Below, one piece after another: positions 1-32,000 of a DNA stretch of 32,000 nt. A model generated the notes under the pieces. That model did no database searches, was not told where the DNA came from, and saw only the letters and a list, made by a program, of their open reading frames with translations. The stretch lies in NCBI GenBank assembly GCA_003584625.1, contig AP017647.1, forward strand, positions 760,603 through 792,602, given 5' to 3'. Numbering within the stretch: the first letter of the stretch is position 1; each line of letters opens with the position of its first letter. Source of the stretch: Methanothermobacter sp. MT-2 (GTDB taxonomy: Archaea > Methanobacteriota > Methanobacteria > Methanobacteriales > DSM-23052). Position numbers and translations under genes: made by a program.

Positions 1-303
1 TCCATCAAGCCAGGTCCTTGAATGAGGGAGATTGTGTGAGTATAGAAAGACTGACCAGGATAAAGGAAAGGCTAAACATAGAAAGAAATTGTAGGGCTAC
101 TTTCCATGGCCGGGCTTTCAAGAGATTGTAGAATATGGTTGAATACAAATGCTTGGAGAATGGAATCCCAATAGTCTATGTTGAACCCTTATACTTCTCA
201 GAGATGTCCAAAATGCGGAACCATCGACAAGCGGAGCCAATCTTTTTTCAAATGTATTAGATACGGCTACCAAGGTGACGCTGATTATATCACCTCCTCT
301 TAA
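1..303 (+). pseudogene. tnpB: IS200/IS605-family TnpB (OrfB) 3' remnant, disrupted; N-terminus off window
   Basis: Frame 3 reads ..VSIERLTRIKERLNIERNCRATFHGRAFKRL*NMVEYKCLENGIPIVYVEP. Frame 1 continues NPYTSQRCPKCGTIDKRSQSFFKCIRYGYQGDADYITSS*. The order EYK..G-I-x-V..V.P.YTSQ.C..CG...C..DAD matches the TnpB RuvC/zinc-finger C-terminus. There is an in-frame TAG at 129-131 and a frameshift near 180-190. Confidence 0.6.
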
Positions 304-532
304 CCTTAATTAGATGCTGGGCAAGTTTGAATTCCTGTCAACCAGTCCCAGGAGGGATCTTATGCAAATACAAAATAGTCTGCAGCCCCCTCGATTAAGA
401 GGCGGGGTAGTTGACAATATCTTGAACTTTATAGTATCATGGCATTTTGACCATAACATTATGGTATTTTTACCATAATTTTCGCCATTGTAAATCGACA
501 ATATAAAGTGATTTAAGCATTCGAAAAAATCT

Positions 533-905
533 TTATTTTATTAGTTTTTCTTTTTTTCTTTGCCATGGAGGTGAGACTATGCAGAGGAATGAAAGAATTG
601 AATCTCCAATATTCTCAATATATTGCACTGCCCCTTGCTGGTATGAAAATAGCGTCGCCTGCTGCGACCTTCTTTGTTTCTTTTTCAATGTGCATCCTAG
701 CATCGCCCTCTAGAATATAATAAACTTCTACAGACTCTTTTAGATAATGTGGTAGTGAAGATTCCCCTGATTTGAGGATGGCATGGGCTAAGCTGAATTC
801 TATTCCTAAATCTTCTTTATGTGGGTGTAAAAGTTCACAGAGCAGGGTAGCATCTAACACTCTATTATACCTACAATCCTTGACACTTTTAACAATCAAA
901 AACAT
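533..905 (-). pseudogene. cupin-domain protein with an apparent 1-nt frameshift near the C-terminus
   Basis: ORF 615..1016 ends ..SLPHYLKESVEVYYILEGDARMHIEKETKKVAAGDAIFIPARGSAIY*. Shifting one base around 631-640 continues IPAGAVQYIENIGDSILSFLCIVSPPWQRKKEKLIK* (stop at 533-535), which completes a typical cupin barrel. ATG at 905 is preceded by GGAGG. Confidence 0.6.
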
Positions 906-946
906 CAAACCTCCATAAGATATTATGTGAAGAAAAATATAATGTT

Positions 947-1321
947 TTGTGGGAGGGTGTCTTTTTGTTAGATGATGAAATGCTTGTGTTCCATTATGCT
1001 GACCGGGCGAAAGCATTCATAATAGAAGTATTCAGACTATTTGAATACTATGAGGGATTGGAGGATTCAGAAGAGCTGGAAAAACTTATGTTAGAAATAT
1101 TCAAGGGATGTGAAAGGGAACTGACACTTGGAAAAACCGTCTGCTCCAATATAAACTGGGCACAAGATTACTTTGAAGATGCGTCAAAACTGGCCAGGGA
1201 ACTTATAAGGGATTTCAACAGAAAAGACCACGAAGGAGTAAAAGAAGACCTAAGAAACATATTGAATAAAATGACAACCTGCGCGGCCACAGCAGAAACA
1301 AGGAACATGAACAAAAATTAA
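947..1321 (+). CDS. hypothetical protein (acidic, helical); start uncertain
   Basis: 124-aa ORF with no motif I recognise. The 5' end overlaps the cupin upstream region, so an internal start (for example M12 at 980) is possible. Confidence 0.4.
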   Translation: MWEGVFLLDDEMLVFHYADRAKAFIIEVFRLFEYYEGLEDSEELEKLMLEIFKGCERELTLGKTVCSNINWAQDYFEDASKLARELIRDFNRKDHEGVKEDLRNILNKMTTCAATAETRNMNKN

Positions 1322-1757
1322 CTTAATAACACCCTACACAGGTTACATAAGATTTAAATTACATCTTAAAACATATAGTTCACAATCTACTATAAATATA
1401 CGGGTTTAAAAGATTAGAGGAACTTCCCAGATAAAATCTAAATATTCCAATCTAATTTCGAAATAAAGGATGTACTTTAGGATTGCAGAAAAATAAGAGA
1501 ATAATTGATACAATAAATAATCTAATATCAAATATCATCAAATGAAAAACTGGAAAACTTGGTTTACAAGCCAAACACGAAACTAATTAGGAAAATATAT
1601 TTAAGGAGTCACATGAATATAATGCTTCCTTTAAATGCTAAATTTTTAAGTCTGGGATAATTCCATCTAAAAAAATAAGAGTGGAGGATTCTTCGAACTA
1701 AATTTTTTCGAGCAGTTCTTCAATTTCCCATGAAATTATAAAAGTTCGGGGGTTCAT

Positions 1758-2073
1758 TTAAAGACACTGAAAGGCTATTTCATCATCGATTTTCTCATAA
1801 AAATGAACTAGGATATTTTTTGAAGGCTTTCATGGCTCTGAGTTTTTCACCTATCTCTTTGCTGATGATATTATCCTGCAGAAGGTTTTCGAATACGTCC
1901 TCATCTTCACTTAGAACTCCAAGTTTTAGATCGGAATAGGATTGAACGTATATCAGATATTCTAAATCTTTTATAGATCCCGTCTCTTACAATTTCAGAA
2001 TATTCTCTTCCATTAGTTTTGTGCCTTCTTTTATTTCCTTAAGCTTCGTCCTTATAATGGCTTGCCTTAACAT
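1758..2073 (-). pseudogene. HEPN (DUF86) toxin-like gene, degraded
   Basis: ATG at 2073 follows GGTGAGGTG. It reads MLRQAIIRTKLKEIKEGTKLMEENILKL*ETGS.. with an in-frame TAA at 1987-1989. After ..EKLRAMKAF, a frameshift in the T6/A6 run at 1816-1821 restores KNILVHFYEKIDDEIAFQCL*, which is the DUF86 (R/K)N-x3-H-x-Y motif. Confidence 0.6.
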
Positions 2074-2086
2074 CACCTCACCTTAT

Positions 2087-2340
2087 TCATATTGGTTTTT
2101 CTCCAATCATAGGATCTCTGTTTGAATGCCTCAAATTCATAGCCTCCCAAGCAATATCATGAAGGAATCTTTCATTCTCACAGTAGATTACCTTCCCCAC
2201 AAGCACTTCAACTCTGAACATGCAAAGATCTATATCAGAGCTACTATGCATTCTCTCATGTACTGCTAACCCCATAAAATACCCTATCAAAAACTTCTGG
2301 TTGCTTTTATCTTGTCAAGAGCCTTTTTTAACATGTTCAT
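2087..2340 (-). pseudogene. MNT-type nucleotidyltransferase antitoxin-like gene, degraded
   Basis: ORF 2087..2290 contains ..SSSDIDLCMF.., the nucleotidyltransferase SDIDL motif. The upstream piece MNMLKKALDKIKATRSF* (ATG at 2340) is in a different frame. The expected GS..ARGE motif has diverged to GLAVHERM. It sits immediately upstream of the HEPN remnant in the classic MNT-HEPN order. Confidence 0.5.
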
Positions 2341-2667
2341 AGGATCCCATGTATGACAAGCTTATCTAAACTTCTGCAAGAACACCGCCCCTTCCAAGAG
2401 GTAGAGGTATGAATTGCAAAGCTTAAATACTGCTTTCCACACTTCATGTAGCCCATGCCTTAACGAAAGGCATGATATGTGGGAGCCATGAATCCCTCAG
2501 AACTCCAAAATGAAGTCCGCCCGTAAGGGAAGGGTAGTTCACTGAATGGGATTTTTCCCCTATTTTAGGGTGGTTAATGTCAAAAAAATTGTTGGGGATA
2601 ATCCTGGAATAGGGATCACAACTATGGGTTGGTAGCCTCTAACCTTATCTGGCAAAGCAATTAAAGT

Positions 2668-2829
2668 CTATTTTTGGGTTTTGGCGTTGATAATGGCCAT
2701 TAAGAGAAATCCGAGTCCGACTCCGATTATTGCACCTATATCTGGCCTGTTAACTGCTAATCCTATACCCATGCATATTAGTATGCAACCTACAAAGGCT
2801 AAACTTCCATATTTTTTCTCTTCGCTCAT
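2668..2829 (-). CDS. small two-TM membrane protein (53 aa), below the ORF-track size cut-off
   Basis: Hand translation gives MSEEKKYGSLAFVGCILICMGIGLAVNRPDIGAIIGVGLGFLLMAIINAKTQK*. It has two hydrophobic segments and lies 38 nt downstream of the CPBP gene on the same strand. The RBS (AGGA) is weak. Confidence 0.4.
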   Translation of the reverse strand: MSEEKKYGSLAFVGCILICMGIGLAVNRPDIGAIIGVGLGFLLMAIINAKTQK

Positions 2830-2867
2830 TTTTTTTACGTCCTATTTGTTTTTATGACCCACACACA

Positions 2868-3671
2868 TTAGGCGGAATCCTCGATTTTTAAGCGCTTTTT
2901 TTGTGTGCGGGTCATTTTTTCAGGTCCCCATATTATTAGGATGATTATCACCACGATTATGTTTAGTATGAGTGAGTATAGTCCTCCTAGTTTGGTTGTG
3001 TTAAGTGGGAATATGAAGTGTGAAAGGTTGCCTGTTGTGTGGAGAAGAAGTACTGCTAGGATGCTTTTACCTGTATTGTTGTATACCCATGTAAATATTA
3101 TTGAAAAAAGGACTGTTCCCAGGATAAAGCCCCAGATCGGCACATTATAATACATTTCCTGTCTGGGCATGAAAAATAGAGGGAGATGCCATAATCCCCA
3201 TATTATCCCAATTATTATACTCGAAATGAGGGCATTGTAATATATTTGTAACCTGTCAAGGGCATATCCTCTCCAACCAAACTCTTCTTCCACCGGCCCG
3301 CCAAGGAAAAGAATATAGAAAAATGCCGGGATAATAACCCATGGCTGAGACAAAACAGCTATTTCAGGTGCTGGTTCGCCGCTGAGGATTGCTAAAAGGA
3401 GTGAGAAGCCTACGATAGCCGGCATCAGTAAAAATATTGGTATAAGCCAAACCTTCCCGAACCTAAAATCCAAACCCCTACCAAGCAACCTTTTTATCCC
3501 ATCTAAACCTTCACTCATATATGTAAGGATAAAAGCAGCTACTGTAGGGCCAAAAGGTGCAAGATACAATCTTAAATCCCATAGAACCTCAGGCAGCCAA
3601 AGCAGCCAAGACCAAGCAAAGGCCATGATAAAGAATAAACACAAATTTCTCTTTTCATTTCCATAGTTCAT
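2868..3671 (-). CDS. CPBP (CAAX/Abi) family intramembrane metalloprotease
   Basis: Polytopic membrane protein with the motifs EEEFGWRGY (EExxxR), WGLWHLP (FxxxH) and LLHTTGN. The likely start is the ATG at 3671 (MNYGNEKR), preceded by GGGGGGTGA. Confidence 0.85.
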   Translation of the reverse strand: MNYGNEKRNLCLFFIMAFAWSWLLWLPEVLWDLRLYLAPFGPTVAAFILTYMSEGLDGIKRLLGRGLDFRFGKVWLIPIFLLMPAIVGFSLLLAILSGEPAPEIAVLSQPWVIIPAFFYILFLGGPVEEEFGWRGYALDRLQIYYNALISSIIIGIIWGLWHLPLFFMPRQEMYYNVPIWGFILGTVLFSIIFTWVYNNTGKSILAVLLLHTTGNLSHFIFPLNTTKLGGLYSLILNIIVVIIILIIWGPEKMTRTQKKRLKIEDSA

Positions 3672-3719
3672 CTCAATCACCCCCCACCAATCTGCTCCCC
3701 CATTGGATTCTATATGTGA

Positions 3720-3752
3720 ATTACCCCCAGGTAAGCAATGGGGGTTTCTCTC
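3720..3752. repeat. G/C-run hairpin element, copy A (ATTACCCCCAG-loop-GGGGGTTTCTCTC)
   Basis: ACCCCC (3723-3728) can pair with GGGGGT (3740-3745). It shares an identical 11-mer, ATTACCCCCAG, and the GGGGGTyTCTC tail with 8113-8139. Confidence 0.5.
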
Positions 3753-4313
3753 TTTTCCTATTGACTTTTACTTCAAGGGGGGGACTTCACTTGGGGAAGT
3801 TCACAGCTCCCCCCACATCCTACAGCTTATTAGGTGTGGGCTGTGCTCTGCTGTCTCTTAAGGCAACTTGATGTGGAATATCACCCTTAAGGTTTCCTTA
3901 ACATTCAAAATATTTAAAGTTATCCAAATGTATCACCCCCCTCGAGTATGTGTGGGGGTTTGACAAGCAAACAGAAAGATAAAAACATTAAAGTGAAATG
4001 AGAGGGTATGAGTTTGCAAATCCAACATTTTTTTGTGAAGCATACAAATAACCAAAGAAAGGATCCTCCCAAGAAACCCCCATGGTAAAACATCCCAAAA
4101 ATTATATAAAATTTAGAAAGCTTCACCAACCTTTTTTTGGCTATTAACCTACAATAGAAAGGACACCCCACACATAAAAAACCTTTTTCCTATGGGGGCT
4201 GAATCCTCGAAAAATAAGGATAAGTTTTTACAAAAAGGTATATAATAGAATGTGTAGACATATTAGCTGTTAGAACCCCCCACACACACAGATATGATAT
4301 CGAGAGAATTTGT

Positions 4314-4811
4314 TTGGAGGAAAGCCCTTTGAAAATTGGAACATTAACAATATTGATAGTAGGCCTTTTAGCAGTAGTTGCAGCCGCATATCTGCTAACA
4401 AAGGAACCTGGCACACCCACATTGTCAAACACAACCCAGAAAACAGAATCCAATGTAACAAGCACAGGAGCCGCCAAACTCGTAGCAACCCAAGAAGGCC
4501 CTGAAACAGCACATCCAGGAACAAATGTGACAATAACTTGTGAAATAAAAAACGTGGGATCAGAACCGGCTGAGAATATTATTGTAACTTCTCAAGTTTT
4601 TGAAAAAAGGATAGAAAAAATAAACCCTGGAGAAAAAGTGAAATTTAATATTAGCGTGTACATTCCAACCCTAGAGGAAGTTAAGAAAGATTTCGGTCCA
4701 AACGCAACCCTTTCAAACCCATTCTACATTGGAGGATACACAGTGATATATCATGACATAAAAGGCGAACATCAAATAACATCCAACCCAATCAACATAA
4801 AACTCATCTAA
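4314..4811 (+). CDS. membrane-anchored extracellular protein with a CARDB/DUF11-like beta-sandwich domain
   Basis: N-terminal TM/signal anchor (KIGTLTILIVGLLAVVAAAYLL), then TITCEIKNVGSEPAENIIVTS, typical of CARDB-like domains. The track start is TTG at 4314. An alternative TTG at 4329 lies 8 nt after GGAGG (4316-4320). Confidence 0.6.
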   Translation: MEESPLKIGTLTILIVGLLAVVAAAYLLTKEPGTPTLSNTTQKTESNVTSTGAAKLVATQEGPETAHPGTNVTITCEIKNVGSEPAENIIVTSQVFEKRIEKINPGEKVKFNISVYIPTLEEVKKDFGPNATLSNPFYIGGYTVIYHDIKGEHQITSNPINIKLI

Positions 4812-4987
4812 AAAAAAAGAGGACCTTTAACAACCCCATCCACAACTACCAACAGGGAAACTTCCCAGCAACAAAATCCCAGCGCACCCCCCAACATAAA
4901 AAGAAAATAGTCAAATCTATGGCCTGAAAAATTCAAAACCTTCTTAAATAATAAAACATGCTTTCCCACAAAAAAATAAGAAGGTTT

Positions 4988-6172
4988 TTAATATCTCCTG
5001 GAAACACTGAAACCCACGATAATCGACAATACTGCGAACACCATTAAAACTAATGGAACTCCCGTTGGCTGCATTGGAACCTCCCATGGACTTGGTGGCT
5101 TAGGTGGTCTACCTCCTACTTCTATAGTAACAGAAGCCTTGTTATTACCCATATCAGGATCATATATATCACTTGTCACCGTAGCCACATTAGTAATATT
5201 CTTATTAGATGTTACGACCCTTGCTATGATACTAAGAGTTGCAATCGAACCCTTTGATAAGTTCCCAATAATCCAAACTCCAGATACCGGATCATAACTT
5301 GGACTGCTCGCACTCACAAACCGCAAGCCCGCCGGTAACAAATCAGTAACCCTAACATTCACTGCAGTATCAGGTCCAAAGTTTATAACCCCTATAATAA
5401 ACCTTACAGTATCCCCATATCTTACCTTCGTTGCATTCACAACCTTAATGATCGCAAGATCAGCCGCTGGAGGCACATTAAATGTAATATTAGCCCTAGT
5501 GTTATTCAAGTGAGGATCATAGATACTGCTTGACACATTAGCCATATTATCTATCGTCTCATTAGACCCAATAACCCTAGTTATGATCTCAAGCGTAGCC
5601 AAATCACCAACTGAAAGATATCCAACACTCCACAGACCAACAACCGGATCATAAGTTCCATGCGATGCTATGGCACTTAAAAATTCTAAACCACTAGGCA
5701 ACTCATCAGTCACCAACACACCTACAGCAGGATCCGGCCCAGCATTCCTAACCACTAAAGTAAACTTAACAATATCCCAATAATTGATACTCGTTTGGTT
5801 AGCAGCTTTAGTGATGGCAAGATCTGCTGCAGGAGGCACAAGTATCGTCACATTATCTCTATTGTTGCTCATGTCTGGATCGTATATGTCGCTTGAAACA
5901 TTCGCCACATTAGTTATGCTGGTGTTGCTTGCCACAACCTTGGCTATGATCTCCAAGGTTGCCACAGCACCCTTTGCTAACTCGCCAATGGTCCAAATAC
6001 CACTCGTACTATTATAATCTGTACTGTTTACACTCACAAATTGTAATCCGGCTGGTAACAAGTCAGTTACCCTAACATTCACTCCAGCATCCGGTCCATT
6101 GTTTGTAACAGTTAAAGTGAACTTGACAGTGTCCAGGTAATTGACAGTTGCAGCATTGGCTCCCTTCTCCAT
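4988..6172 (-). CDS. DUF11 (conserved repeat domain) surface protein with a C-terminal TM anchor; apparently 5'-truncated
   Basis: Three roughly 121-aa repeats (ADLAI[TI]K..NY.D.V.F....N.GPD.A..V.VTD.LP.GL.F.S......G.W..G.L..G..ATL.I...V......I.N.A.V.S..YDP...NN). The C-terminus is PKPPSPWEVPMQPTGVPLVLMVFAVLSIIVGFSVSRRY. There is no signal peptide, the ATG falls inside a repeat unit, and an in-frame TAG lies 3 codons upstream. Confidence 0.75.
   Translation of the reverse strand: MEKGANAATVNYLDTVKFTLTVTNNGPDAGVNVRVTDLLPAGLQFVSVNSTDYNSTSGIWTIGELAKGAVATLEIIAKVVASNTSITNVANVSSDIYDPDMSNNRDNVTILVPPAADLAITKAANQTSINYWDIVKFTLVVRNAGPDPAVGVLVTDELPSGLEFLSAIASHGTYDPVVGLWSVGYLSVGDLATLEIITRVIGSNETIDNMANVSSSIYDPHLNNTRANITFNVPPAADLAIIKVVNATKVRYGDTVRFIIGVINFGPDTAVNVRVTDLLPAGLRFVSASSPSYDPVSGVWIIGNLSKGSIATLSIIARVVTSNKNITNVATVTSDIYDPDMGNNKASVTIEVGGRPPKPPSPWEVPMQPTGVPLVLMVFAVLSIIVGFSVSRRY
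5113..6172 (-). repeat. intragenic tandem repeat, about 363-nt period, three units (DUF11 modules)
   Basis: ADLAITK starts at aa 116 (nt 5827) and ADLAIIK at aa 237 (nt 5464). Units 1 and 3 share exact strings (VNVRVTDLLPAGL, DIYDPDM) that unit 2 lacks. Confidence 0.8.
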
Positions 6173-6503
6173 AAAAAAAATCTATCTCCAACCTCTAAAG
6201 GAGGATCCCCTCTGCAAGCATTCAAGGCCCATACTATTAGATTTGAAGAGACATCATACACCTCACAGGGACATTCTAGACAAGCAAATAAGAACTATCT
6301 AAAATTCTAAGGGAGAGTTCTTTTCATGAACACAATTTACACAAGTTATTCAATTCTACTTTCATCATCCCCATCTAACAGCTCTTTTTCAACCCTTAGA
6401 TTCTTGACCTATAAGGTTCCCTGCTCTATCACCTTCCAGAAGAAAACTCAACAGAAAAAAATAAAATAGGGATAAGGTTTGTGCGCTGATCTCTTGTGAT
6501 TTC

Positions 6504-7010
6504 TTAGGATATTTTGAAAGTTTCTATTATTTTTTTGAATGTGGTCAGGTCACTGTTTTGACTCCAATAAAATATTTCGTATCCCTGACTTTCATCTATT
6601 CTTATATGTACTATGGTGACATAGTTGCCTCCAATGGTATATTGGAATAGCGCGGCATCATATCCATCTACTTTCATGCTTTCATCTGTTGACACGATCT
6701 CTGATTCGTTGTATGATGATCTCATTTCCTGGAGCCATTCACTTGGTGATCTCACATAACCAGCACCAGATGCTTTTAATTTCGCCACTGCAAATTCTTC
6801 AGTCTCATTCCCAAGATATGTTATAATACTTATTGAACCGAACTCTGATGTGGGAAGAGAAGCCTCCAAATCACTCGCAGATAAATTCTCCCAACCCTGG
6901 GGATAATTAAATGTTATACCATCCCCAGAAAACGTCTTTTCCTGTGTTCCCGTGCAACCAAATCCAAAAGCCACAATAGCTAATATAAAAATCGGCAAAA
7001 ACCTCTTCAC
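6504..7010 (-). CDS. predicted secreted lipoprotein, function unknown
   Basis: Signal peptide MKRFLPIFILAIVAFGFGC with a lipobox-like Cys, followed by a soluble domain (GITFNYPQGWENL..). Confidence 0.7.
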   Translation of the reverse strand: MKRFLPIFILAIVAFGFGCTGTQEKTFSGDGITFNYPQGWENLSASDLEASLPTSEFGSISIITYLGNETEEFAVAKLKASGAGYVRSPSEWLQEMRSSYNESEIVSTDESMKVDGYDAALFQYTIGGNYVTIVHIRIDESQGYEIFYWSQNSDLTTFKKIIETFKIS

Positions 7011-7754: not shown

Positions 7755-8112
7755 CAACAAACATCTTAGATAAACATAATATATAAATCTTATATCCAAA
7801 CATTTTAGGCCTCCAATAGCCTGTTCACAGCCCAATGAACAATTACCAATATAACTAGATCACTTCACACCCTACATCTCTTGGATTCTCAATTCTACAA
7901 ACGCAAAAAAAAACCTCTTATGATAGGCCTCAAAGACATTAACCCACATCATTTTTAACCGCTACTAAGCTCACACAAGAAAGGGAATAGAACAGAAGGA
8001 TGGAGGATCAACCTTCATATCAGAGATATACATGTAACTTACAAGGCTGAGAGAGCTGGTAGGAGCAGAAATGACATGGAACCGCCCCCCAGAACACCCA
8101 TGAAAAGAACCA

Positions 8113-23557: not shown

Positions 23558-25129
23558 TTATAGGTCCTCTGGAGATAGGAGTGGAGGTTTCTTCTTCGTT
23601 TCGCTTATTTTGTCTTTGACATGTTCTTCGAAGAGCGGTATTTTGACGGGTACTGCGAATTTTGTGAATATGCTAGTCACTATAGCCTCTCCCCTGTCAA
23701 GACTTGCTATTGCCCGGTTATCATCTGATAAGTCTTGTGATGCGCTTGCTATGATCTCGGCCCTTTCCTGTGACATCTCATTTCCCAGGATTATCTTTGT
23801 GTTCATATTCGCAAGTATTGTCCTGGGGATTAAAGTTACAAGTTGTGTTATGGCCACGAGTCCAATGTTGAATTTCCGGCCTTCTCTTGCTATTGTACTG
23901 TAAATGTTATGGCCTTGTCTTTCTATGACTTCTTTGCCGAGGACTCTTGGGGCTTCTTCGATCACTATACCGATTATGGGTTTCTCTTCTAATTTCCCTT
24001 CTGCTTTGTACTTCTGGTATTTGTTGAATAATGCTCCGACGATTATGCTGCCTACTAGTAATTCTGCTTCGCCCATAAGCCGTGAGGTGTCTATTATAAC
24101 GATTTCACCATTTTCTAGGGATTTTATAATATCTTTGATGGTTGAATCCCCAGCGTCTGTTGTGAACACACCTCCACGAGATTCTAATCGGTCTTCTTCT
24201 TTGTAAATGCCGAGTATGTTATCGAATTTTCTCTGAAGGACGCTGATCGTGCTGGGACTTACCTTTTCCTTGGTTCCTTCCTGGTTCTCGTTTTCTTCTA
24301 TTATAATTTTTTGTATCCAGTTCTCTTCGAACTTGTTATGGTAAAGTTTTATTGCATCCTTTTGTGCGCTTGTAAATTCGACTATACCATCAAAATGTTC
24401 TGGTCTTATGGATTTAAGGTTTATGTTAAGGGAATATGCCATGCCTTCAACCTTTGAAGTCTCAGGAGTATAATATCTAAGTTTTTCTTGGTTTGGATGG
24501 TTCTTTAGTCCTGTTTCGTTTCTGCCATAGTATTCGTCGTGTGGGTCGAGGACTAGCATGCCTATGTTTTCTATGTTCATGATTTCCCAGAGCATGACCT
24601 TGACTAGGTTGCTTTTTCCTCTTCCTGTTGTTGCTGGTATTAGGATATGGTGTGGTATTGCTTCTTTGGCATCAACGTGTATTTTTGTTTTAAGTTCTTT
24701 GGAGCCGCTTCTCACATTACCAAGGTAGAGTGGGTTTTCTATTTTTTCTTTCATTAGGAAGTTGAGGTCGTCGTCTTTTATGCGTCTTATGCGGTTGAAG
24801 AAGCCTGGGAGGGTTTTGGGTAATTGTGGTTCATCGTCTTGTATTTGGAGTATGGTTTTGGCTTCTGCAATTATATAGTTTCTAAGTTTTTCATCTAGGA
24901 ATTCCATGTGTGAGCCGTGACCTTCAAGTTGTAGTCCTGAGGCGAGTTCCCTCATGATCTGGGGTATCTGTGAATGATAAACCAGATCTTTTACTTGTAG
25001 GATGCTGTAGCTGTTATCATCCTCTTCCGCGACTAACAGGTCTCCTAATTCTATTTTTGAACCGCTTTTTTCTCTTATGAAGATCTTTGAGGTTTCTCCT
25101 CCTATGATTTGTCCTATGGGATCCATCAA
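23558..25129 (-). CDS. herA: HerA helicase (FtsK/HerA-superfamily ATPase)
   Basis: Walker [14 protein letters not shown], Walker B region GIVIEEAPR, and an N-terminal HAS-barrel-like region. It sits between nurA and mre11. The RBS is GGGGGG. Confidence 0.92.
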
Positions 25130-25150
25130 ACCCCCCTATAATGTGTATTT

Positions 25151-26233
25151 TTAATTTTTGCTTATATTTGCTATCATGTTTAATTTTTCATGGGCGTCAA
25201 CTGCCCTTATATGTGCTTTCAAATCTTCTAGGATATCCTCTGATAGTCCTGAGAGTATCCTTGTTTTATATAATTGTACTTCGTCCATGCGCACTCTTGC
25301 GTTAAGGTCGGCGTCTATTAAACCGTAGGGGTAGCCTGGGAATGTTGGGTCAATGGCGTTTTCTCCAATGGCAGATATTACCTCGACTTCGTCATCATCT
25401 CCCTTGAGGAGGTCTAGGCGGAAAATATATTCTGTGAGTTTGTGTAATTTAACAACAAGGATTCTTAAGCCTGGAAGCTCCTTTCCATCCGCCCCTTTAT
25501 CTACTATGGGATGACACCACCTATCATATTTATTGTCTTTGGCAAACTTTTTAATGGAGGCTATTAGGGAGTTTCCTGTGGTGGTGGGGAGTGTGGATGT
25601 TTTTGAAAGGCCTGCGAGGTTAACACCCTTTTTGTGGGCGGTTTCCATTACTTTGTGCAAGTATTTGTTTTCTCCTTCAAATGATGCTTTAAGTGAACCA
25701 TCCCTTACTAGTATGTCACCATCATCAAGCTCTTCTTCTATTATGCTTGTGCTGAAGCTCCATTCTGCAAATCTGCGGGCTACAGAGAACATTCTACTCC
25801 GCTGATAGAAATCTGGGGGTCCTGGGAGCGTGAATGTAAGATCTTCTTCTCTTGGAAGGTATTTTGCATGCTCTTCTGAGAGTGGGAATATCTTCACTTT
25901 ACCTATCGGTGCATCTTCCAACTCATGGACATTGAAATAAGAGAGGAACTCTATCTTCTCAGGTATCCTTGAAGATGGTTTTCTGCGTTCTCTGCCCTTA
26001 AAAAGGTTGAAGTATACTCTGTTTACTTGTAATGAGAATCTTGGAGCCTCTAATATGGTGTTATTCCCGCCGTCGACAAAGGCCATAAGACGCGGTTCAA
26101 CATCCCTAAGAGGTTTGAAATAGGCCTTGTTAAAATCGTAAATCTTATAATCCCCGGATCGGAAGTATGGTCTGCCTATATCCTTTTTAACCTCTTTTTC
26201 AAGGGTTTTAATTATCCTTTCCAAGACCCCCAA
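25151..26233 (-). CDS. nurA: NurA 5'-3' nuclease
   Basis: NurA-type motifs MAFVDGGNN and ILVRDGSL, in an operon with herA. The start is uncertain: the track ATG at 26290 overlaps the upstream gene, while the TTG at 26233 lies 9 nt after GGAGG. Confidence 0.85.
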   Translation of the reverse strand: MGVLERIIKTLEKEVKKDIGRPYFRSGDYKIYDFNKAYFKPLRDVEPRLMAFVDGGNNTILEAPRFSLQVNRVYFNLFKGRERRKPSSRIPEKIEFLSYFNVHELEDAPIGKVKIFPLSEEHAKYLPREEDLTFTLPGPPDFYQRSRMFSVARRFAEWSFSTSIIEEELDDGDILVRDGSLKASFEGENKYLHKVMETAHKKGVNLAGLSKTSTLPTTTGNSLIASIKKFAKDNKYDRWCHPIVDKGADGKELPGLRILVVKLHKLTEYIFRLDLLKGDDDEVEVISAIGENAIDPTFPGYPYGLIDADLNARVRMDEVQLYKTRILSGLSEDILEDLKAHIRAVDAHEKLNMIANISKN

Positions 26234-26255
26234 TATTATAAATCCTCCGTGGGTT

Positions 26256-26813
26256 TTATTCTTTTTTCTCTGCGATAACAGCAGTCCCATATGCTAATAG
26301 TTCCTGCATTATATTGGAAATGGAATCAGAGTCGAACCTTGTACTTATAACAGCATTGGCTCCAAGTTCCCTTGCATGACTTATCATACGATCAATGGCT
26401 TCTTGACGTGCATGTTCCATCATGGTAACATATTCTTTGATCTCACCCCCACCAATAGACCTTAAATTGGCGGTTATCTGGCCTCCGAGTCCTCTGCTTC
26501 TTACTGTAAGACCATAAACTAAGCCAATGGTTTTAACAACATCATATCCAGGGATATAATTTGAGGTTACAACAATAAAATCCCCAGATACGATTGGAGC
26601 CTCTGGAGCCGCCATCTTCTCCTCCACAACCTTCTCTTCGAGTTTTGTGCCGCATTCCTCGCAGAAATTAGCTCCTGGCCCGTATTCCCTGCCACATGTC
26701 GGACAGTATTTGGTAGGTGCCTCTGTTCCCGGTCTTGGAGGGGTTGAAGGTTCAACCTCCCCTCTTCTTCTTTTTTCTTCCAATCTTCTTTTCATCTCTT
26801 CTGTAGATACCAT
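26256..26813 (-). CDS. YbjQ/UPF0145 (DUF74) domain protein with an N-terminal zinc ribbon
   Basis: CPTCGREYGPGANFCEECG zinc ribbon, then FIVVTSNYIPGYDVVKTIGLVYGLTVRSRG..GG.I....GGE, typical of YbjQ. ATG at 26813 lies 5 nt after GTGGGGGTGG. Confidence 0.8.
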   Translation of the reverse strand: MVSTEEMKRRLEEKRRRGEVEPSTPPRPGTEAPTKYCPTCGREYGPGANFCEECGTKLEEKVVEEKMAAPEAPIVSGDFIVVTSNYIPGYDVVKTIGLVYGLTVRSRGLGGQITANLRSIGGGEIKEYVTMMEHARQEAIDRMISHARELGANAVISTRFDSDSISNIMQELLAYGTAVIAEKKE

Positions 26814-27177
26814 ATCAACCACCCCCACATTTTCTCTCGATCAGATTCTTAAAAAACCCCCGATATTAGTAGAATGAGCCATCCAAGATCTTCCACATCC
26901 CCTAATATCCTTTTTTTATGGTATGGGGGTTCCTGGTGTTTTATTCCAAGGAGTTCATAATGCCACCTTGGGGGTAATATGCCCTCATTTCAAAAGGTAG
27001 ATTTTCAAACTATTTAACTTCTTCGGGGGGTGTGAACACAGTTAATTGTAATGTTAGTTCACCTATAATGAGATTAGGATGATGGCATCTATGTATAGAA
27101 TCATTGTAGAAAGATTATTAGATCATTTTTTCTTTAAGATACGGTTAAATATTAGATCTTGCTAGAAATGTTATCCT

Positions 27178-28551
27178 ATGAGGCTTCGAAGGGCTCTCAC
27201 ATTATTTGATGTTGTGAACCTTGTCATTGGAACTATAGTCGGCGCCGATATTTATATAGTGGCTGCTGTCGGCGCCGGAACCCTTGGACCTGCATCCATT
27301 TTATCATGGCTTATAGCAGGGTTCATGGCGATTATAATAGCACTTGTATTTGCAGAGGCCTCATCCTTACTACCTAGGGTTGGGGGTCCTTATGCTTATG
27401 CTAAACATGTTTTCGGGGATTTTTTAGGTTTTGTTGTGGGTTGGTCTCTTTGGGTTTCGTCTTGGGTGGCTATAGCGGTTTTCCCAGTTGCATTTGTTTC
27501 ATATTTGCTCCATTTTATTGCCTTGGATCCTATCATACAAGGCTTTGTTAAGGTTGTTTTCATAGTTTCTTTAACTATGATAAATTATAAGGGTGTGAAG
27601 TTGGCTGGTAAGGTTAATGATGCTTTAACTGTTTTGAAGCTCGCCCCACTTTTTATTTTTGCCATTGCGGGTTTGATCTATTTTTTCATGGAACCAGGCG
27701 TCCTAGTATCTAATTATGTGCCATTCGCACCCTATGGTTTCGGGGGTTTGGGTAGTGTTGTTGTTCTTGTTTTCTGGGCATATGTAGGTTTTGAACTTGT
27801 AACAGTACCATCTGATGAGGTTATAGACCCTGAGAAGACCATACCAAAGGCTATAATCCTTGGGATGGTATTTATCATGTTATTTTATCTTATCACGAAT
27901 TTTGTTATATTAGGTGTTGTACCATCAAAGCTGCTTGCAAACAGTAGCGCGCCACTGGCACTTGCAGGTTACATGCTACTAGGATCCTCAGGGGCTATGA
28001 TAATGACCCTAGGAGCCCTATTCTCAATATCGGGTTCTGAGGAGGCGGGTATACTCTCCACTGCCAGGATATTGTATGCTATGGCCTCTGATGGGCTTCT
28101 CCCAAGGATATTCGCCTCGGTGCATCCAAGGTATAAGACGCCCTATGTAAGTTTGGTTTTCCAGAACTTAACAGCTCTTCTAGCAGCACTTCTTGGAACC
28201 GCCACACAACTTATAAGTATTTCGGTGTTCACCCTACTATTCTGTTATATTTTAACTTGCATCTCATTACCATTACTTAAAAAAAGTAGGATCTCTGTTA
28301 AGGCTATCCTAGGATTTTTGATTTGTGTCTATCTTATGATTAACTGTTCTATTGATTCTATCATCTGGGGTTTGATTTTAACCTTTATTGGAATCCCATT
28401 ATATCTTAGGCATGCAACCCATCAAACCGACATTTATGTGAAGAGGCTGGCAAGACAATTACAAGATGCTATATTGGCTAGGAGGGAGAGAAGGTTTCTT
28501 GCAAGGTTTCTAAGGTCAATGCTAAACCTTATAATGAAACTGAAAAAATAA
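27178..28551 (+). CDS. APC-superfamily amino acid/polyamine permease
   Basis: About 12 predicted TM segments. The N-terminus LTLFDVVNLVIGTIVGADIYIV and FAEASSLLPRVGGPYAYA are typical of APC transporters. Confidence 0.88.
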   Translation: MRLRRALTLFDVVNLVIGTIVGADIYIVAAVGAGTLGPASILSWLIAGFMAIIIALVFAEASSLLPRVGGPYAYAKHVFGDFLGFVVGWSLWVSSWVAIAVFPVAFVSYLLHFIALDPIIQGFVKVVFIVSLTMINYKGVKLAGKVNDALTVLKLAPLFIFAIAGLIYFFMEPGVLVSNYVPFAPYGFGGLGSVVVLVFWAYVGFELVTVPSDEVIDPEKTIPKAIILGMVFIMLFYLITNFVILGVVPSKLLANSSAPLALAGYMLLGSSGAMIMTLGALFSISGSEEAGILSTARILYAMASDGLLPRIFASVHPRYKTPYVSLVFQNLTALLAALLGTATQLISISVFTLLFCYILTCISLPLLKKSRISVKAILGFLICVYLMINCSIDSIIWGLILTFIGIPLYLRHATHQTDIYVKRLARQLQDAILARRERRFLARFLRSMLNLIMKLKK

Positions 28552-28572
28552 CATTAAGGGGGGATATTCTTC

Positions 28573-30258
28573 TTATTTTAGAAATTTTCTGATTTCCTTT
28601 AGGTTCCTCGTGTTTATTATGTCTTTGGGTGTGGCCCATCCTCTTCTTGCTGTTTTAACACCCCATTTTATGTTGTGTAGGTCTGTGAGTCTGTGAGCGT
28701 CACTGTTTATTGCGAGTTTGCATCCGTATTCTATGGCCCTTTTTATGTAAATGTCTCTGATGTCTAGGCGGATTGGGTTGGCGTTTATTTCGAGTATTGT
28801 GCCTGTTTTGGCTGCTTCTTCGAATATTCTGTCGAGGTTTAGGGGGTATTCGTCTCTTTTGAATAGTTTTCTTCCGGTGGGGTGTCCTATGATATGTACA
28901 TGTTTGTTTTCTATGGCTGCGATTATTCTTTCTGTCATGTCTTCCCTTCCGGGTGAGTGTATGCTTGCTATTACAATGTCTAGTTTTGTTAGTATGTCAT
29001 CTGGGATGTCTAGGCGGCCGTCTAATCTTATGTTGGCTTCTATACCCTTGAGGATCTGTGTTTTAAGGTTTAGTTTGTCTATTTCTTCTATTTGTCTTTG
29101 GAGTTTTTCCTCGTTGAGGCCTCCTGTGATTTTTAGGGAGCTGCTGTGGTCTGTGATTGCTATATATTCGTATTGTAGGTTTTGGGCGGCTTTTGCAATG
29201 TCTTTTATGGTTTCGGTGCCGTCGCTCCATATGGTGTGGATGTGGAGATCTCCTTTGATTTGGTTTTCTTTTATGAGTTTTGGGAGTTTTCCCTGGGCTG
29301 CGGCTTCTATTTCTCCGTTGTTTTCTCGAAGTTCTGGTTGGATGTATTCTAGTCCTAGGGTTTTGAAGATTTCTTTTTCTGTTTTTGATGCTATTTTTTT
29401 CTTGTTTTTGTATAGTCCGTATTCGTTTAGTTTCATTGATTTTGACTGTGCTAGTTTTCGAAGTTCTATGTTGAATTCCATTGATCCTGTGAAGTATAGT
29501 AGGGCTGCGCCGAATTCTTCTTTCTTGAAGGTGCGTAGTTCACATTCAACTCCATCTTCTAGACGTATTATGGCCTTCTTGGGGCCTTTGGCTATTGTTT
29601 CATTGGCTATTTTTAGGGATGTGAAGTGTTCTATGATTTTTTCTGGGTTTTGTGTTATTGTGAGTAGGTCTATGTCTCCTATTGTTTCTTTTCCTCTTCT
29701 TATGGATCCGGCTATTTCTACTTTTTCTGTTTTTGGGTGTTCTTCTAGTATGGATTTTATGTATTGTGCTATGGGTTCTATGTAGGCTATTGGTTTTCTT
29801 CCCAGTGTTGATTGGACGAATTTGATGCTTTGGAGTATTCTTTTTTCTTTTTTTTCTCCTATTCCTTTTATTTTTTGGAGGTTGCCTTTTTTGGCGTGGT
29901 ATTCTAGGTCTTCTAGGTTTTGGATTTTGAGTTTTTCATAGAGTGTTTTTATTGTTTTGGGGCCTATTCCTTCTATTGCGAGTAGGCTGTCCATGTCTAT
30001 GGGGTATTCTTTTTCTAGTTTTTCTAGGTAGGATAGTTTGCCTGTTTTTAGTATTTCTTCTATTTTTTCTGCTATGTTTTCCCCTATTCCTGGCAGTTCT
30101 GTTAGTTTTCTTTTTTTGGCGTATTCTTTTATGTCTATTGGTAATAGTTGGATTGTGTGGGCTGCTTTTCTGTAGGCTTTAACTTTGAATGTTTCTTCTT
30201 CCATTTCTAGGAAGTCAGCTACCCTGTTCAGGATTTTAGCGACTAGTGCGTTTTTCAT
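28573..30258 (-). CDS. polX: family X DNA polymerase with a C-terminal PHP domain (PolX)
   Basis: HhH motifs (LPGIGENIAEKI, IEGIGPKTIK, IKGIGEKKEK), the Pol-beta nucleotidyltransferase motif GSIRRGKETIGDIDLL, YFTGS, and the PHP motifs GDLHIHTIWSDG, ITDHS and NSDAH. Confidence 0.92.
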   Translation of the reverse strand: MKNALVAKILNRVADFLEMEEETFKVKAYRKAAHTIQLLPIDIKEYAKKRKLTELPGIGENIAEKIEEILKTGKLSYLEKLEKEYPIDMDSLLAIEGIGPKTIKTLYEKLKIQNLEDLEYHAKKGNLQKIKGIGEKKEKRILQSIKFVQSTLGRKPIAYIEPIAQYIKSILEEHPKTEKVEIAGSIRRGKETIGDIDLLTITQNPEKIIEHFTSLKIANETIAKGPKKAIIRLEDGVECELRTFKKEEFGAALLYFTGSMEFNIELRKLAQSKSMKLNEYGLYKNKKKIASKTEKEIFKTLGLEYIQPELRENNGEIEAAAQGKLPKLIKENQIKGDLHIHTIWSDGTETIKDIAKAAQNLQYEYIAITDHSSSLKITGGLNEEKLQRQIEEIDKLNLKTQILKGIEANIRLDGRLDIPDDILTKLDIVIASIHSPGREDMTERIIAAIENKHVHIIGHPTGRKLFKRDEYPLNLDRIFEEAAKTGTILEINANPIRLDIRDIYIKRAIEYGCKLAINSDAHRLTDLHNIKWGVKTARRGWATPKDIINTRNLKEIRKFLK

Positions 30259-30284
30259 AGTCCCACATCGGGAAGAATAAAAGT

Positions 30285-31019
30285 TTAAAGGTTTATGGCT
30301 TTCACTATTTCTGTTATCTTTTCCTGGATGTTCGTGGCGTCTTCTACTATTGTCCCTGTTACTATTATGTCTGCTCCGGCTTTGGCTGCTCTTCTAGCGT
30401 CTTTTTCTGTTCTTATACCGCCGCCTACTATGAGTGTTAGGTTTGTGGATTTTTTCACCCTTTTTATCATCTTTGCTGGGACTGGTTTTTCGGCTCCTGA
30501 TCCTGCTTCTAGGTAGAATAGTCTCATGCCGAGTAGTTCTGCTGCCATTGCATAGGCTGCTGCTATGTCTGGTTTGTTTCTTGGGATGAGTTTGGCGTCT
30601 CCAACCCATCCTACTGTGCCTCCTGGTTCTATTACAAGGTATCCCATTGGTAGGGGTTCTATGTCCATTTTTTTTATGGTGGGTGCGGCTAGTGCTTGGG
30701 CTCCTATTATCCAGTATGGGTTTGTGGAGTTCAGGAGGCTCATGAAGAATATGGCGTCAGCGTATCCTGTGACGCCTGAAATGTTACCAGGGAATAATAT
30801 TATCGGAACTTTAAGGTTTTCTTTAAGCGTTTTTGCCGTGGCTTCTAGTTCCAGACCGTCTGTTGTGGATCCTCCGAGCATTATACCATCCGATCCTCCT
30901 TGGACCGCGGCTTTAGCTATCTTCAGGGCTTCTTGTGGTGTTTGTTCCTCTGGGTCGATTAGGGTGAGGTGGATTTTTCTCTCCTTGAGAATTTTATTAA
31001 AGTAATCTTCGACTTTCAT
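30285..31019 (-). CDS. geranylgeranylglyceryl phosphate synthase (PcrB/GGGPS family)
   Basis: A TIM-barrel PcrB-family sequence with ..HLTLIDPE.., GSDGIMLGGS, YLVIEPGGTVGWVG, LFYLEAGSGA and LIVGGGIR. It sits in an archaeal lipid and ribosome-gene neighbourhood. Confidence 0.9.
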   Translation of the reverse strand: MKVEDYFNKILKERKIHLTLIDPEEQTPQEALKIAKAAVQGGSDGIMLGGSTTDGLELEATAKTLKENLKVPIILFPGNISGVTGYADAIFFMSLLNSTNPYWIIGAQALAAPTIKKMDIEPLPMGYLVIEPGGTVGWVGDAKLIPRNKPDIAAAYAMAAELLGMRLFYLEAGSGAEKPVPAKMIKRVKKSTNLTLIVGGGIRTEKDARRAAKAGADIIVTGTIVEDATNIQEKITEIVKAINL

Positions 31020-31045
31020 CTCAGACCCAAAAAAAAGTAGATTTT

Positions 31046-31192
31046 TCAGCCTCTCGGATCCTTGGCTTTGAACCTTAAACCTTTATAGCCGCATTTTCTG
31101 CATCTTGTAGCGTTTGGCGGGTTTCTAGCATTACATTTGAAGCATATTTTGACGTTGAATATTCTCTCTTCTGCTACTTCGAATTTTGCCAT
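31046..31192 (-). CDS. rpl40e: 50S ribosomal protein L40e
   Basis: [48 protein letters not shown] is 48 aa with a C4 zinc ribbon. ATG at 31192 lies 5 nt after AGGTGAT. The longer track ORF is a spurious extension. Confidence 0.9.
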
Positions 31193-31197
31193 TAATA

Positions 31198-31704
31198 TCA
31201 CCTTATGAATTCTTCTTGGATTTTTATAACTTCTCGACTGTCTTTGGCTTTGGAGTATGCCTCTAATAGTTCTCTGTTGAGGTCTAGGAAGTGCGGACCC
31301 CATTTGAATGAGGACATTATATTGACTGCTATATCTTTTAATCCGATTATATAAAAGGTTGCTGCGAGGGCTTCTGCAGTGGACAATATTAGGGGTTTGC
31401 CATAATTAGTTGGGTTGGCGGCTACAAGATATGGTAGCGCCCTATGATATTTCTTCACTGCGAATATTGACGAAGATCTCCTAACTTCCTTCCATGAGCA
31501 GTCTAGGGCCGCCACTCCCCTTTTTAGTATCTGTTCTTTGTCTGTTGGTGATAGTGCTTTTTCTGCGAACGGGTTGAGCACTATGCTACCTGTTGGTATT
31601 CTTTTGATACTTGTTACTATTTTAAGTTTTCCCATCCTAGCCAGTTTTAGGCTTGTACATTTTTTCCTGTCACATTCTTCTGCATGATATACGATAATCT
31701 TCAT
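31198..31704 (-). CDS. tsr3: 16S rRNA aminocarboxypropyltransferase Tsr3
   Basis: [21 protein letters not shown].., ..ALDCSWKE.. and ..[24 protein letters not shown].. match the Tsr3 (DUF367/COG2042) family. Confidence 0.88.
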
Positions 31705-31706
31705 GT

Positions 31707-32000
31707 TTAAAATTGGTTTCTTTCATAGTCCATTATTTGGGGTATTGCAAGTGAGGGGTCGTTTAGCTGGTCGAGGTCATAGTATCTTCCGCCTGATAGC
31801 ATTGCAAGTTCCATGTTTATGTTGCGGCCTTGTTGGAATTTCCTTTCGAAGTTTATTACTATGGTGTGTATTTCGTTTTTGTTGAGTTCTCTTCCGAGTT
31901 CCATGACGTCTTGGATTGGTCTGCCTTTCATGCCGACGTTGGGCATCCCATCACTTAATATGAGCATTACTGGCACGTATTCTTCTTTTTTCTTTTCTTC
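31707..32000 (-). CDS. vWA-domain protein, C-terminal part (5' end beyond window)
   Basis: ..VMLILSDGMPNVG..., ..IHTIVINFE.. and ..LAMLSGGRYYDL.. are typical of the end of a von Willebrand A / ChlD-like domain. The reading frame stays open to the window edge. Confidence 0.7.
   Translation of the reverse strand, partial: EEKKKEEYVPVMLILSDGMPNVGMKGRPIQDVMELGRELNKNEIHTIVINFERKFQQGRNINMELAMLSGGRYYDLDQLNDPSLAIPQIMDYERNQF

Follow-up and report, generated by a model that had tools for sequence, protein, structure and literature searches.

The question raised by the stretch studied here is what decides, over distances of about a kilobase, which of the two DNA strands carries G and T. The stretch is 32,000 nucleotides of the genome of Methanothermobacter sp. 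MT-2 ("Met2", M. tenebrarum clade) at about 760.6-792.6 kb (genome coordinate = window position + 760,602), and the whole of it is called the window below. We measure the strand asymmetry by the keto skew, (G+T-A-C)/N, with its sign given either for the plus strand or for the coding strand. An initial annotation, made from the letters alone, had described a mosaic of G+T-rich and A+C-rich blocks that follows neither gene boundaries nor gene orientation, and had suggested deamination of exposed single strands as the cause. The region read here is the window, extended to 55 kb and then to 65 kb of the same genome, together with 10-20 kb for each relative. On the whole, the mosaic is real and unusually strong, and we see about an even chance that it reflects a patchy nucleotide bias oriented by transcription and further shuffled by recombination between lineages.

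The window DNA is 100% identical over 13-21 kb in assemblies of seven samples from thermophilic digesters (JGI, ENA and NCBI), with one single-base indel in two of the otherwise identical contigs, and PolX, DUF11 and further window proteins are encoded identically on JGI, ENA and NCBI contigs. The gene lengths and spacing agree with METMT2_0801-0831 in the gene table of the complete genome AP017647 (PMC5431450), and PriS, just outside the window, corresponds to METMT2_0854. The nearest named species to the window lineage is M. tenebrarum, which bears out the initial annotation's guess at a thermophile among the Methanobacteriaceae, and the same mosaic is found in five relatives. An assembly, consensus or chimera artefact, which had been named as an alternative, is refuted by these agreements, and we give it practically no weight.

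All five stretches described as G+T-rich depart clearly from parity over all sites (keto skew +0.32 to +0.39, z = 10-17), and the intergenic region 10460-10640 is likewise G+T-rich, with a skew of +0.43 (+0.42 with A39 C14 G32 T97 over 10459-10640). The A+C-rich stretches are confirmed at 1205-1345, 3440-3700, 4690-4990, 7011-7350 and 7840-8600 (-0.28 to -0.40) and at 12861-13532 (-0.17), but 17300-18540 (-0.03) and 21700-23550 (-0.05) are neutral over all sites, the latter being A+C-rich in part only and at third positions. The codon counts made by hand were exact (trxB with 10 TAC to 1 TAT and 7 GAC to 1 GAT, Mre11 with 29 GAT to 6 GAC). One implied G/T-preferring unit has to be withdrawn, because 12197-12598(+) is a wrong-strand open reading frame (ORF) opposite DUF6506. 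The signal is concentrated at third codon positions, where the coding-strand keto skew ranges from -0.92 to +0.34 and the G+C content (GC3) is steady at 0.32-0.44 throughout. The regulator gene orf197 (-0.92), trxB (-0.83) and PolX (-0.81) are followed by Mur1, Mur3, HerA, GGGPS and DUF169 at about -0.5; Mur2, MobA and YbjQ are close to zero, and Mre11, the permease, ACT-MBL and DUF11 reach +0.11 to +0.34. In orf197 the 80 four-fold sites consist of A (.72) and C (.28), with G and T both at 0. Over the 55 kb, the 50-codon bins have 8.6 times the variance that binomial sampling would give. Their values are broadly and unimodally distributed and do not form two classes.

At the level of genes, orientation does matter for the sign, contrary to what had been claimed. 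Among the genes of at least 100 codons in the 55 kb, 41 of 51 have a coding strand that is A+C-rich at third positions, both orientations alike, with mean coding-strand skews of -0.28 (plus strand, 20 genes) and -0.29 (minus strand, 31 genes). The plus-strand skew accordingly correlates with gene orientation (r=-0.67, p=6e-8). The G+T-rich strand is thus the transcription template in about 80% of the genes whichever way they point; the choice of strand is not random with respect to genes, and the sign follows the direction of transcription. That A+C-richness goes with the coding strand is evident from DUF169, where the gene and the A+C-rich strand are both plus. Beyond the window the plus-strand genes DeoC (-0.67), DHQS (-0.52) and the CCA-adding enzyme (-0.69) behave alike, and these four genes together span -0.46 to -0.69. 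The equal means for the two orientations leave no detectable replication-strand component. A replication-linked skew, e.g. near a terminus or among several origins, might be suspected for a window located near the midpoint of a 1.52-Mb genome, keto skew being its usual form, but the equal means and the more than 20 changes of sign or amplitude within 55 kb refute it for this region. We therefore consider it very improbable, in accordance with what the initial annotation had argued.

The other half of the claim, that the skew ignores gene boundaries, is well supported. By permutation test, an internal change-point at p<0.01 is present in 17 of the 35 genes of at least 200 codons, against 0.35 genes expected by chance, so that the bias is not uniform along the gene, and at least five patches cross into an oppositely oriented neighbour or a spacer. 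The strongest change-point found (cumulative-sum statistic 5.4) is in Rad50, which flips from +0.15 to -0.63 at codon 283 (window 21446); others change orf387 from -0.57 to +0.02, CPBP from +0.17 to -0.57 (codon 184) and TatD from -0.44 to +0.19. Hidden-Markov segmentation (HMM) of the third positions gives patch lengths of about 0.3-2.7 kb (Table 1), and the autocorrelation of the coding-strand skew reaches zero at 1.2 kb without a later peak. In the gene map, NurA-HerA-Mre11-Rad50 continue gap-free into three Mur-type ligase genes (pseudomurein synthesis), orf387 and the MobA-like gene (13748-26290, minus strand). A 4.4-kb periodicity, seen by eye in this NurA-to-MobA row, was rejected, as the autocorrelation has no later peak.

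The patch with the most extreme skew, 8748-10823, spans trxB(-), two tRNA genes(+), orf197(-), a divergent spacer and the first ~60 codons of ACT-MBL(+), which are consequently G/T-ending. Similarly, the A+C-rich plus strand of the 3444-5855 patch makes the minus-strand CPBP and DUF11 parts within it use G/T-ending codons. Three further patches of this kind are seen in the extended region: one links o151, DUF116 and TatD to the Mg-chelatase-like gene at its 5' end, another runs between DHQ and UCP5278 (5' part), and the third joins CCA to the 3' half of PriS. At the 20 junctions of oppositely oriented genes, the facing bins are correlated at r=+0.45 (p=0.046) on the plus strand and r=-0.68 on the coding strand. 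Three spacers share the local sign, the one at 10459-10640 already mentioned, 4812-4987 (-0.44) and o151/DUF116 (-0.41), and nine other divergent spacers lie between -0.17 and +0.13. G/T-ending coding stretches are mostly extensions of a neighbour's patch, with 21906-22841 as an isolated exception. In convergent pairs, it is the sign of the better-expressed gene that reaches the partner's 3' end (CCA into PriS, orf165 into DUF11, DUF6506 into ACT-MBL).

Overall, the bias is not ordinary codon selection, as the initial annotation had held: spacers and a pseudogene remnant are skewed, and replacement sites move too. In strongly biased genes every codon family moves to A or C; for leucine, CTA makes up 51% of the codons there versus 15% in weakly biased genes, and TTA with TTG 8% versus 38%. 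The encoded amino acids shift as well, with Lys, Gln, Thr and Ile up and Phe, Val, Trp and Tyr down. Between MT-2 and a tenebrarum-like genome, the change of skew at codon positions 1-2 tracks that at position 3 (21 genes, r=0.80, p=1.5e-5); judged from the per-gene values, it is about one fifth as large. This covariation shows a directional pressure on nucleotides, not a choice of codons matched to tRNAs, and the bias is not confined to synonymous sites in ORFs, the three spacers and the pseudogene remnant being skewed as well. At four-fold sites, A is preferred over T.

The direction of recent change was read against five related lineages with 77-92% nucleotide identity, for window 8.7-23.5 kb. 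Among the polarised changes of the window lineage, the strand-specific excess of A>G and C>T that had been predicted is found in two blocks. In 8745-12188 the plus strand has 35 A>G versus 5 G>A and 14 C>T versus 5 T>C; 18 A>G changes are at codon positions 1-2, nearly all of them in ACT-MBL and hence on its own coding strand, and over 10826-12188 of this gene the window lineage is still gaining plus-strand G and T at all three codon positions. In 14877-16430 the changes go 36 versus 11 toward plus-strand G+T (17:6 at positions 1-2, 19:5 at position 3), and in 17241-19028 the direction of the window-specific changes is reversed. Counts away from the skew in strongly skewed blocks (e.g. 2 versus 24 in 19031-21444) were excluded as evidence of decay, since parsimony is biased that way under skewed composition. 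All assemblies being identical, there are no within-population single-nucleotide polymorphisms for polarising recent mutations, and the published variant list holds 3-20 changes only (PMC5431450).

The transitions match the deamination proposed initially, but the same composition would also arise if the A+C-rich strand changed by G>A and T>C. The template strand may be accumulating C>T and A>G, or the non-template strand may instead be gaining G>A and T>C, together with T>A; on the sense strand T>A does contribute, since the four-fold sites are enriched in purines. The gain of T and G expected from canonical deamination of the non-template strand is not what is seen here, where that strand gains A and C. 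The bases around the lineage-specific A>G and C>T changes showed no deaminase-type motif. A lost repair gene was considered as a cause and rejected, since the Met2 annotation includes ogt, uvrABC, nfi and a glycosylase of the OGG/AGOG type; a uracil-DNA glycosylase is absent from the annotations of Met2, Met7 and the thermautotrophicus-type Met20 alike. The gene for endonuclease V (nfi) appears in Supplementary Data 4 of the published study, which pairs Met2 with Met7 genes and which we take as a list of genes absent from M. thermautotrophicus deltaH (PMC5431450).

In all five relatives the mosaic occupies the same positions with differing amplitudes, the 14877-17238 patch being stronger in the window lineage than in any of them. 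In a tenebrarum-like genome the skew varies from gene to gene in the same way (r=0.73), but less strongly. The four-fold identity between MT-2 and this genome is 0.60 versus 0.32 at saturation, and with sites unsaturated the agreement of the patterns is largely shared ancestry. Outside the clade, the M. thermautotrophicus orthologues of 19 genes have third-position skews of only -0.17 to +0.12 and do not correlate with those of MT-2 (r=0.23), and the Methanobacterium paludis orthologues are weakly skewed. A persistent gene-specific force, suggested by the conservation of the pattern, was thus rejected: the sites are unsaturated, the pattern is faint in L025, a lineage more distant within the clade, and M. 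thermautotrophicus is without it. As far as these genome comparisons go, the phenomenon is clade-specific, tunable and partly contingent. In addition, an uncultured Methanobacteriaceae genome with a G+C content of 28% (L006) has adjacent same-strand genes with third-position keto skews from -0.58 to +0.53, essentially A versus T (GC3 about 0.1-0.2); a gene-to-gene spread of this kind is thus not limited to the M. tenebrarum clade.

The transcript abundances used here, in reads per kilobase per million (RPKM), come from the gene table of PMC5431450 and cover two reactor samples from one reactor community and condition. Against log expression the third-position skew gives a moderate correlation, with a Spearman rho of -0.44 (p=3e-4, 64 genes, strand-specificity of the RNA data not established), with mean skews of -0.05 below 15 RPKM and -0.45 above 300 RPKM. 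The thermosome gene, at 738 RPKM, has a skew of -0.60. Neighbours can be far apart in expression: trxB (36 RPKM) and orf197 (813 RPKM), about 20-fold different, lie in one patch, and along the NurA-to-MobA row mRNA levels differ up to 27-fold between neighbouring genes (Mur2 9, orf387 247 RPKM), so the row is unlikely to be one transcript. The thermosome gene itself (L024 1204-2823, about 26 kb to the right of the window) is at -0.6 to -0.9 except for a patch of ~80 codons (codons ~400-480) at +0.3 and -0.1, which might come from gene conversion with a paralogue.

Under the explanation we favour, which accounts for all of these findings most simply, a pressure oriented by transcription would strip G and T from the sense strand and replace them with A and C, mainly at silent sites and about one fifth as much at amino-acid-changing sites. 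Its strength would vary in patches of 1-2.4 kb, with net transcription and lineage history, rise on average with transcript abundance and differ by lineage, being strongest in MT-2. Acting on DNA or RNA rather than on codons, it would pass beyond the ends of ORFs into spacers and into the facing ends of opposite neighbours, where the spill-over stretches would thereby carry G/T-ending codons, and homologous recombination of co-occurring lineages would shuffle the patches further. The rule of orientation, the action on nucleotides, the patch edges within genes, the moderate correlation with expression, the confinement to this clade, the continuing directional transitions and the recombination are all seen in the data. 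The patches would then be defined by transcription, including read-through, antisense or long leader transcripts. Mutation seems to us the better candidate than selection on RNA composition, because read-through and spacer DNA is affected and replacement sites move in step with silent sites. The skewed spacers and the spill-over into neighbours fit an asymmetry that covers transcribed non-coding DNA.

A number of observations count against this explanation. The transcript data carry the limits noted above (one reactor community, strand-specificity), and only about 19% of the variance goes with mRNA level. trxB (36 RPKM) and PolX (32 RPKM) are extreme at low mRNA, and HtpX (484 RPKM) and orf168 (424 RPKM) are neutral at high mRNA. 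The polarity is opposite to the textbook deamination of the non-template strand, and the preference for A over T at four-fold sites is contrary to the T-over-A preference reported for 92% of prokaryotes. In L025 the skew is weak and the correlation not significant (r=0.37), and this fading makes the pattern partly a historical accident, not something fixed per gene. Along the uninterrupted NurA-to-MobA row the skew rises and falls four times without a consistent 5'-to-3' trend, which a single transcript does not predict. Moreover, spill-over at divergent junctions (orf197/ACT-MBL, CPBP/orf165, UCP5278/DHQ) requires start sites several hundred bases upstream, inside the neighbour. Unless there are internal, antisense or far-upstream promoters, neither the swings in the row nor the divergent spill-over can be explained.

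The hypothesis put forward in the initial annotation was that kilobase-long single strands, exposed in recombination, resection or repair at high temperature, are deaminated (C>U, A>hypoxanthine). It accounts for patches of 1-2.4 kb with edges inside 17 of 35 genes and running across opposite genes and spacers, for a one-strand excess of A>G and C>T at all codon positions, even on the ACT-MBL coding strand, and for trxB and orf197 sharing a patch despite their gap in expression, in a thermophilic host that recombines with its relatives. Random tracts of this kind, however, predict neither the roughly 80% template-strand bias, met in 41 of 51 genes and about 15 independent patches, nor the correlation of skew with expression, and the G+T-rich stretches on coding strands are almost only extensions of a neighbour's patch. 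The third positions of orf197 are saturated in a gene whose protein is 95% identical to that of a relative with about half the skew, which excludes a single heavy event, and the lack of a deaminase-type context, the contribution of T>A transversions and the purine enrichment at four-fold sites do not fit either. Since the hypothesis covers the patch edges and the kind of transitions but leaves the choice of strand and the relation to expression unexplained, we regard it as unlikely. The reverse is true of translational selection, in which A- and C-ending codons that pair exactly with U34 or G34 tRNAs are preferred according to expression and genes with G/T-ending codons are weakly selected. 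The bias does follow the coding strand, all codon families favour the exactly pairing codons (judging from the standard archaeal decoding rule), and the mRNA correlation and the strongly biased thermosome gene agree with it; codon selection thus explains the choice of strand. It fails to explain the spacers and the pseudogene remnant, the parallel movement of positions 1-2 and amino-acid composition (r=0.80), and the gene parts that go +0.5 to +0.85 the opposite way, past the neutral value of ~0. Bias is highest in a regulator gene and in trxB and PolX, the latter two at 32-36 RPKM; half of the longer genes switch state internally, the axis is not seen in the M. thermautotrophicus orthologues, and the corrected four-fold divergence K from a relative, by our estimates from four-fold differences and compositions, is hardly lower in an extreme gene (~0.67) than in a neutral one (~0.82). 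We hold translational selection to be rather improbable, a shade more so than the deaminated tracts.

Recombination deserves more weight. The identity to the relative L014 is 88-99% over 8.7-13.7 kb and 79-86% beyond, and from ~20.2 kb the otherwise more distant L015-L017 are closer than L014 and L013; these shifts of relatedness at ~13.7 and ~20.2 kb show homologous recombination among M. tenebrarum-clade lineages. If kilobase tracts were exchanged between strongly and weakly skewed lineages, the patches would be made by the exchange, and the state of each would reflect its residence time in a biased lineage. The changing relatedness along the region, amplitudes that differ by lineage and block, and the co-occurrence of Met2 and Met7 in the same reactors agree with this, as do SucD and UCP5278 of L025, whose skew is gone and whose four-fold sites have diverged the most. 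However, the two clearest breakpoints are not at skew change-points: the one at ~13.7 kb coincides with a change of gene orientation and the one at ~20.2 kb is inside a homogeneous A/C-ending patch, so that among the six lineages sampled the breakpoints are not compositional boundaries with identifiable donors. The patch positions are common to all six lineages, and even the closest pair, with 92% identity, is set apart by directional point changes. Foreign import of the neutral N-terminal Rad50 patch was rejected, as it has no affinity to any sampled outside lineage. As the maker of the mosaic, recombination is possible but doubtful; as a cause of patchiness it is compatible with the transcription-oriented bias, and exchange between lineages of unequal bias probably adds to the patchiness. 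Somewhat more speculative is the idea that a new strand-specific mutational process has evolved in the M. tenebrarum clade, acting in kilobase patches and leading to a near-total loss of keto bases from the silent sites of one strand. Such a process might be a build-up of deaminated bases on the template strand, or error-biased repair synthesis copying the sense strand, and a clade-specific change in repair might underlie it, e.g. endonuclease V, present here and listed as absent from M. thermautotrophicus.

Within the papers searched, no description of this pattern was found. It can be compared with known systems. In vertebrate mitochondrial DNA, the sense strand of most genes is A+C-rich and G-poor at third positions, which is attributed to deamination of C and A on the single strand exposed in replication. 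This sense strand is the nearest compositional analogue: its four-fold sites have nearly the composition seen here (A > C >> T, G), the opposite strand carries genes of mirrored composition, and transitions dominate. Unlike the mitochondrial case, where one replication mechanism gives a genome-wide sign and a smooth gradient, the sign here flips with gene orientation and the amplitude changes in patches of 1-2 kb. Transcription-associated strand asymmetry and base loading (Szybalski's rule, purine loading in thermophiles, non-template C>T; PMC12999951, PMC4844684) resemble the present case in a sign set by the direction of transcription, a strength that tends to rise, moderately so here, with expression, and an effect greatest at silent sites and leaking into amino acids. 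The differences are that A and C are loaded here instead of A+G or G+T, that the polarity is reversed, and that the bias is extreme (four-fold G+T down to 0-10%), patchy within genes and found in one clade. Archaeal translational codon bias is likewise gene-specific and correlated with expression, with C over T and A over G, but it does not extend beyond synonymous sites and ORFs, vary within genes, or peak in poorly expressed genes as here. Kataegis-type clusters on resected DNA share the kilobase tracts, the one-strand transitions and the ends that ignore genes; unlike them, the strand here is tied to transcription, the build-up is gradual and under purifying selection, A>G is as prominent as C>T, and there is no motif. 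Mosaics of transfer and amelioration also place segments of different codon usage side by side, and recombination is detected here, but the G+C content is constant across our patches and the neutral ones have no foreign affinity.

The genes and patches of the window are collected in Table 1.

Table 1. Genes and compositional patches along the window. The gene map is based on Pfam and on gene calls on public contigs; plus and minus signs in the third column give the strand.
Feature	Window position	Strand	Remarks
CPBP	2868-3671	-	
orf165	4314-4811	+	
DUF11	4988-6172	-	
orf168	6504-7010	-	
DUF6788	7395-7754	-	
trxB	8745-9653	-	
tRNA-Glu(CUC) and tRNA-Gly(CCC), head to tail	9704-9858	+	between two minus-strand genes, within the most extreme patch
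orf197, 197-residue regulator	9865-10458	-	
ACT-MBL	10641-12188	+	
DUF6506	12265-12591	-	
DUF169	12783-13532	+	
MobA-like	13748-14383	-	
orf387	14391-15554	-	
Three Mur ligases (Mur1, Mur2, Mur3)	15532-19738	-	
Rad50	19782-22295	-	
Mre11	22292-23545	-	
HerA	23558-25126	-	
NurA	25151-26290	-	
YbjQ	26256-26813	-	
Permease (amino-acid)	27178-28551	+	
PolX	28573-30258	-	
GGGPS	30285-31019	-	
L40e, Tsr3		-	in patch 30202-32000
A/C-ending 3' part of CPBP and a 53-codon ORF	2671-3102	-	plus-strand skew +0.53
Plus-strand A+C-rich patch: 5' CPBP(-), orf165(+), convergent spacer 4812-4987 (-0.44), two-thirds of DUF11(-)	3444-5855		skew -0.42; HMM
Non-coding, plus strand A+C-rich	7011-7394		skew -0.22; between two minus-strand genes
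Gene-free, plus strand A+C-rich	7755-8744	+	skew -0.28 (-0.35 over 7840-8360); ends in the glycerophosphotransferase-like remnant
Most extreme patch, plus strand G+T-rich	8748-10823		third-position skew +0.86 over 561 sites; HMM, per-gene statistics and direct reading
Divergent non-coding spacer	10459-10640		sign of the surrounding patch
Remaining ACT-MBL, mildly G/T-ending on its own coding strand	10826-12188	+	+0.06 to +0.26; 33-codon spike +0.88
DUF6506 patch, A/C-ending on the coding strand	12265-12571	-	plus-strand skew +0.51
DUF169 patch, plus strand A+C-rich	12574-13523	+	-0.34; -0.92 in the last 49 codons
Neutral patch: o71(+), MobA(-), 3' part of orf387(-)	13526-14874		+0.01
A/C-ending patch from within orf387, through Mur1, into Mur2	14877-17238	-	plus-strand skew +0.52
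Neutral patch: most of Mur2 and 3' part of Mur3	17241-18737		-0.04; neutral in all six lineages
A/C-ending patch: 5' Mur3 and 3' two-thirds of Rad50	18740-21444	-	plus-strand skew +0.60
Reversed patch: 5' Rad50 and 3' half of Mre11, G/T-ending on the coding strand	21906-22841	-	plus-strand skew -0.36 (to -0.76 in relative L014)
A/C-ending patch: HerA and 3' part of NurA	23600-25781	-	plus-strand skew +0.45
Near-neutral patch: 5' NurA, YbjQ(-), amino-acid permease(+)	25784-28609		+0.12
PolX, extreme A/C-ending over its full length	28612-30199	-	plus-strand skew +0.83; four-fold A.58, C.34, G.02, T.06; 32 RPKM
A/C-ending patch: GGGPS, L40e, Tsr3, start of the Mg-chelatase-like gene	30202-32000	-	plus-strand skew +0.51; extends past the window

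The composition is also a hazard for gene calling. G+T-depleted strands and their complements are poor in stop codons and thus give long false ORFs, up to 344 codons, at 8578-9258(-), 9839-10474(-), 12197-12598(+) and 28751-29785(+), all in the wrong frame or antisense of strongly skewed genes; 9839-10474(-) is a wrong frame of orf197, and 12197-12598(+) is the antisense shadow of the DUF6506 gene. Rfam and tRNA scans for structured RNA gave the two tRNAs only, and nothing that would account for the non-coding A+C-rich stretches. One of these contains the 11-mer GCTAAGACCCC twice within about 90 bases (window 7150-7245). As a whole, window 1-8600 is an accessory, decayed island with few intact genes and long stretches closed in all six frames. 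It is the only part with best database matches outside the clade, and synteny with the relatives is lost at ~8750. It holds a fragment of 41 residues similar to Cas12f1/TnpB at ~178-303 and, at ~8400-8600 on the plus strand, the C-terminal remnant of a glycerophosphotransferase-like gene.

If the bias is mutational, few natural strand asymmetries known outside organelles and single-stranded viruses would be as strong. Codon models, phylogenetics and composition-based detection of transfer assume a stationarity that is broken between neighbouring genes and even between the two halves of a single gene, and the amino-acid composition follows, with Lys, Gln and Thr enriched and Phe, Val and Trp depleted. 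The organism is cultivable (strain Met2-1; PMC7074840) and has unskewed close relatives, which allows experiments on how transcription- or repair-linked mutation works chemically in thermophilic archaea. Should a new mutational process prove to be at work, the patches would be a historical record of the sites of single-stranded or repair intermediates on an archaeal chromosome.

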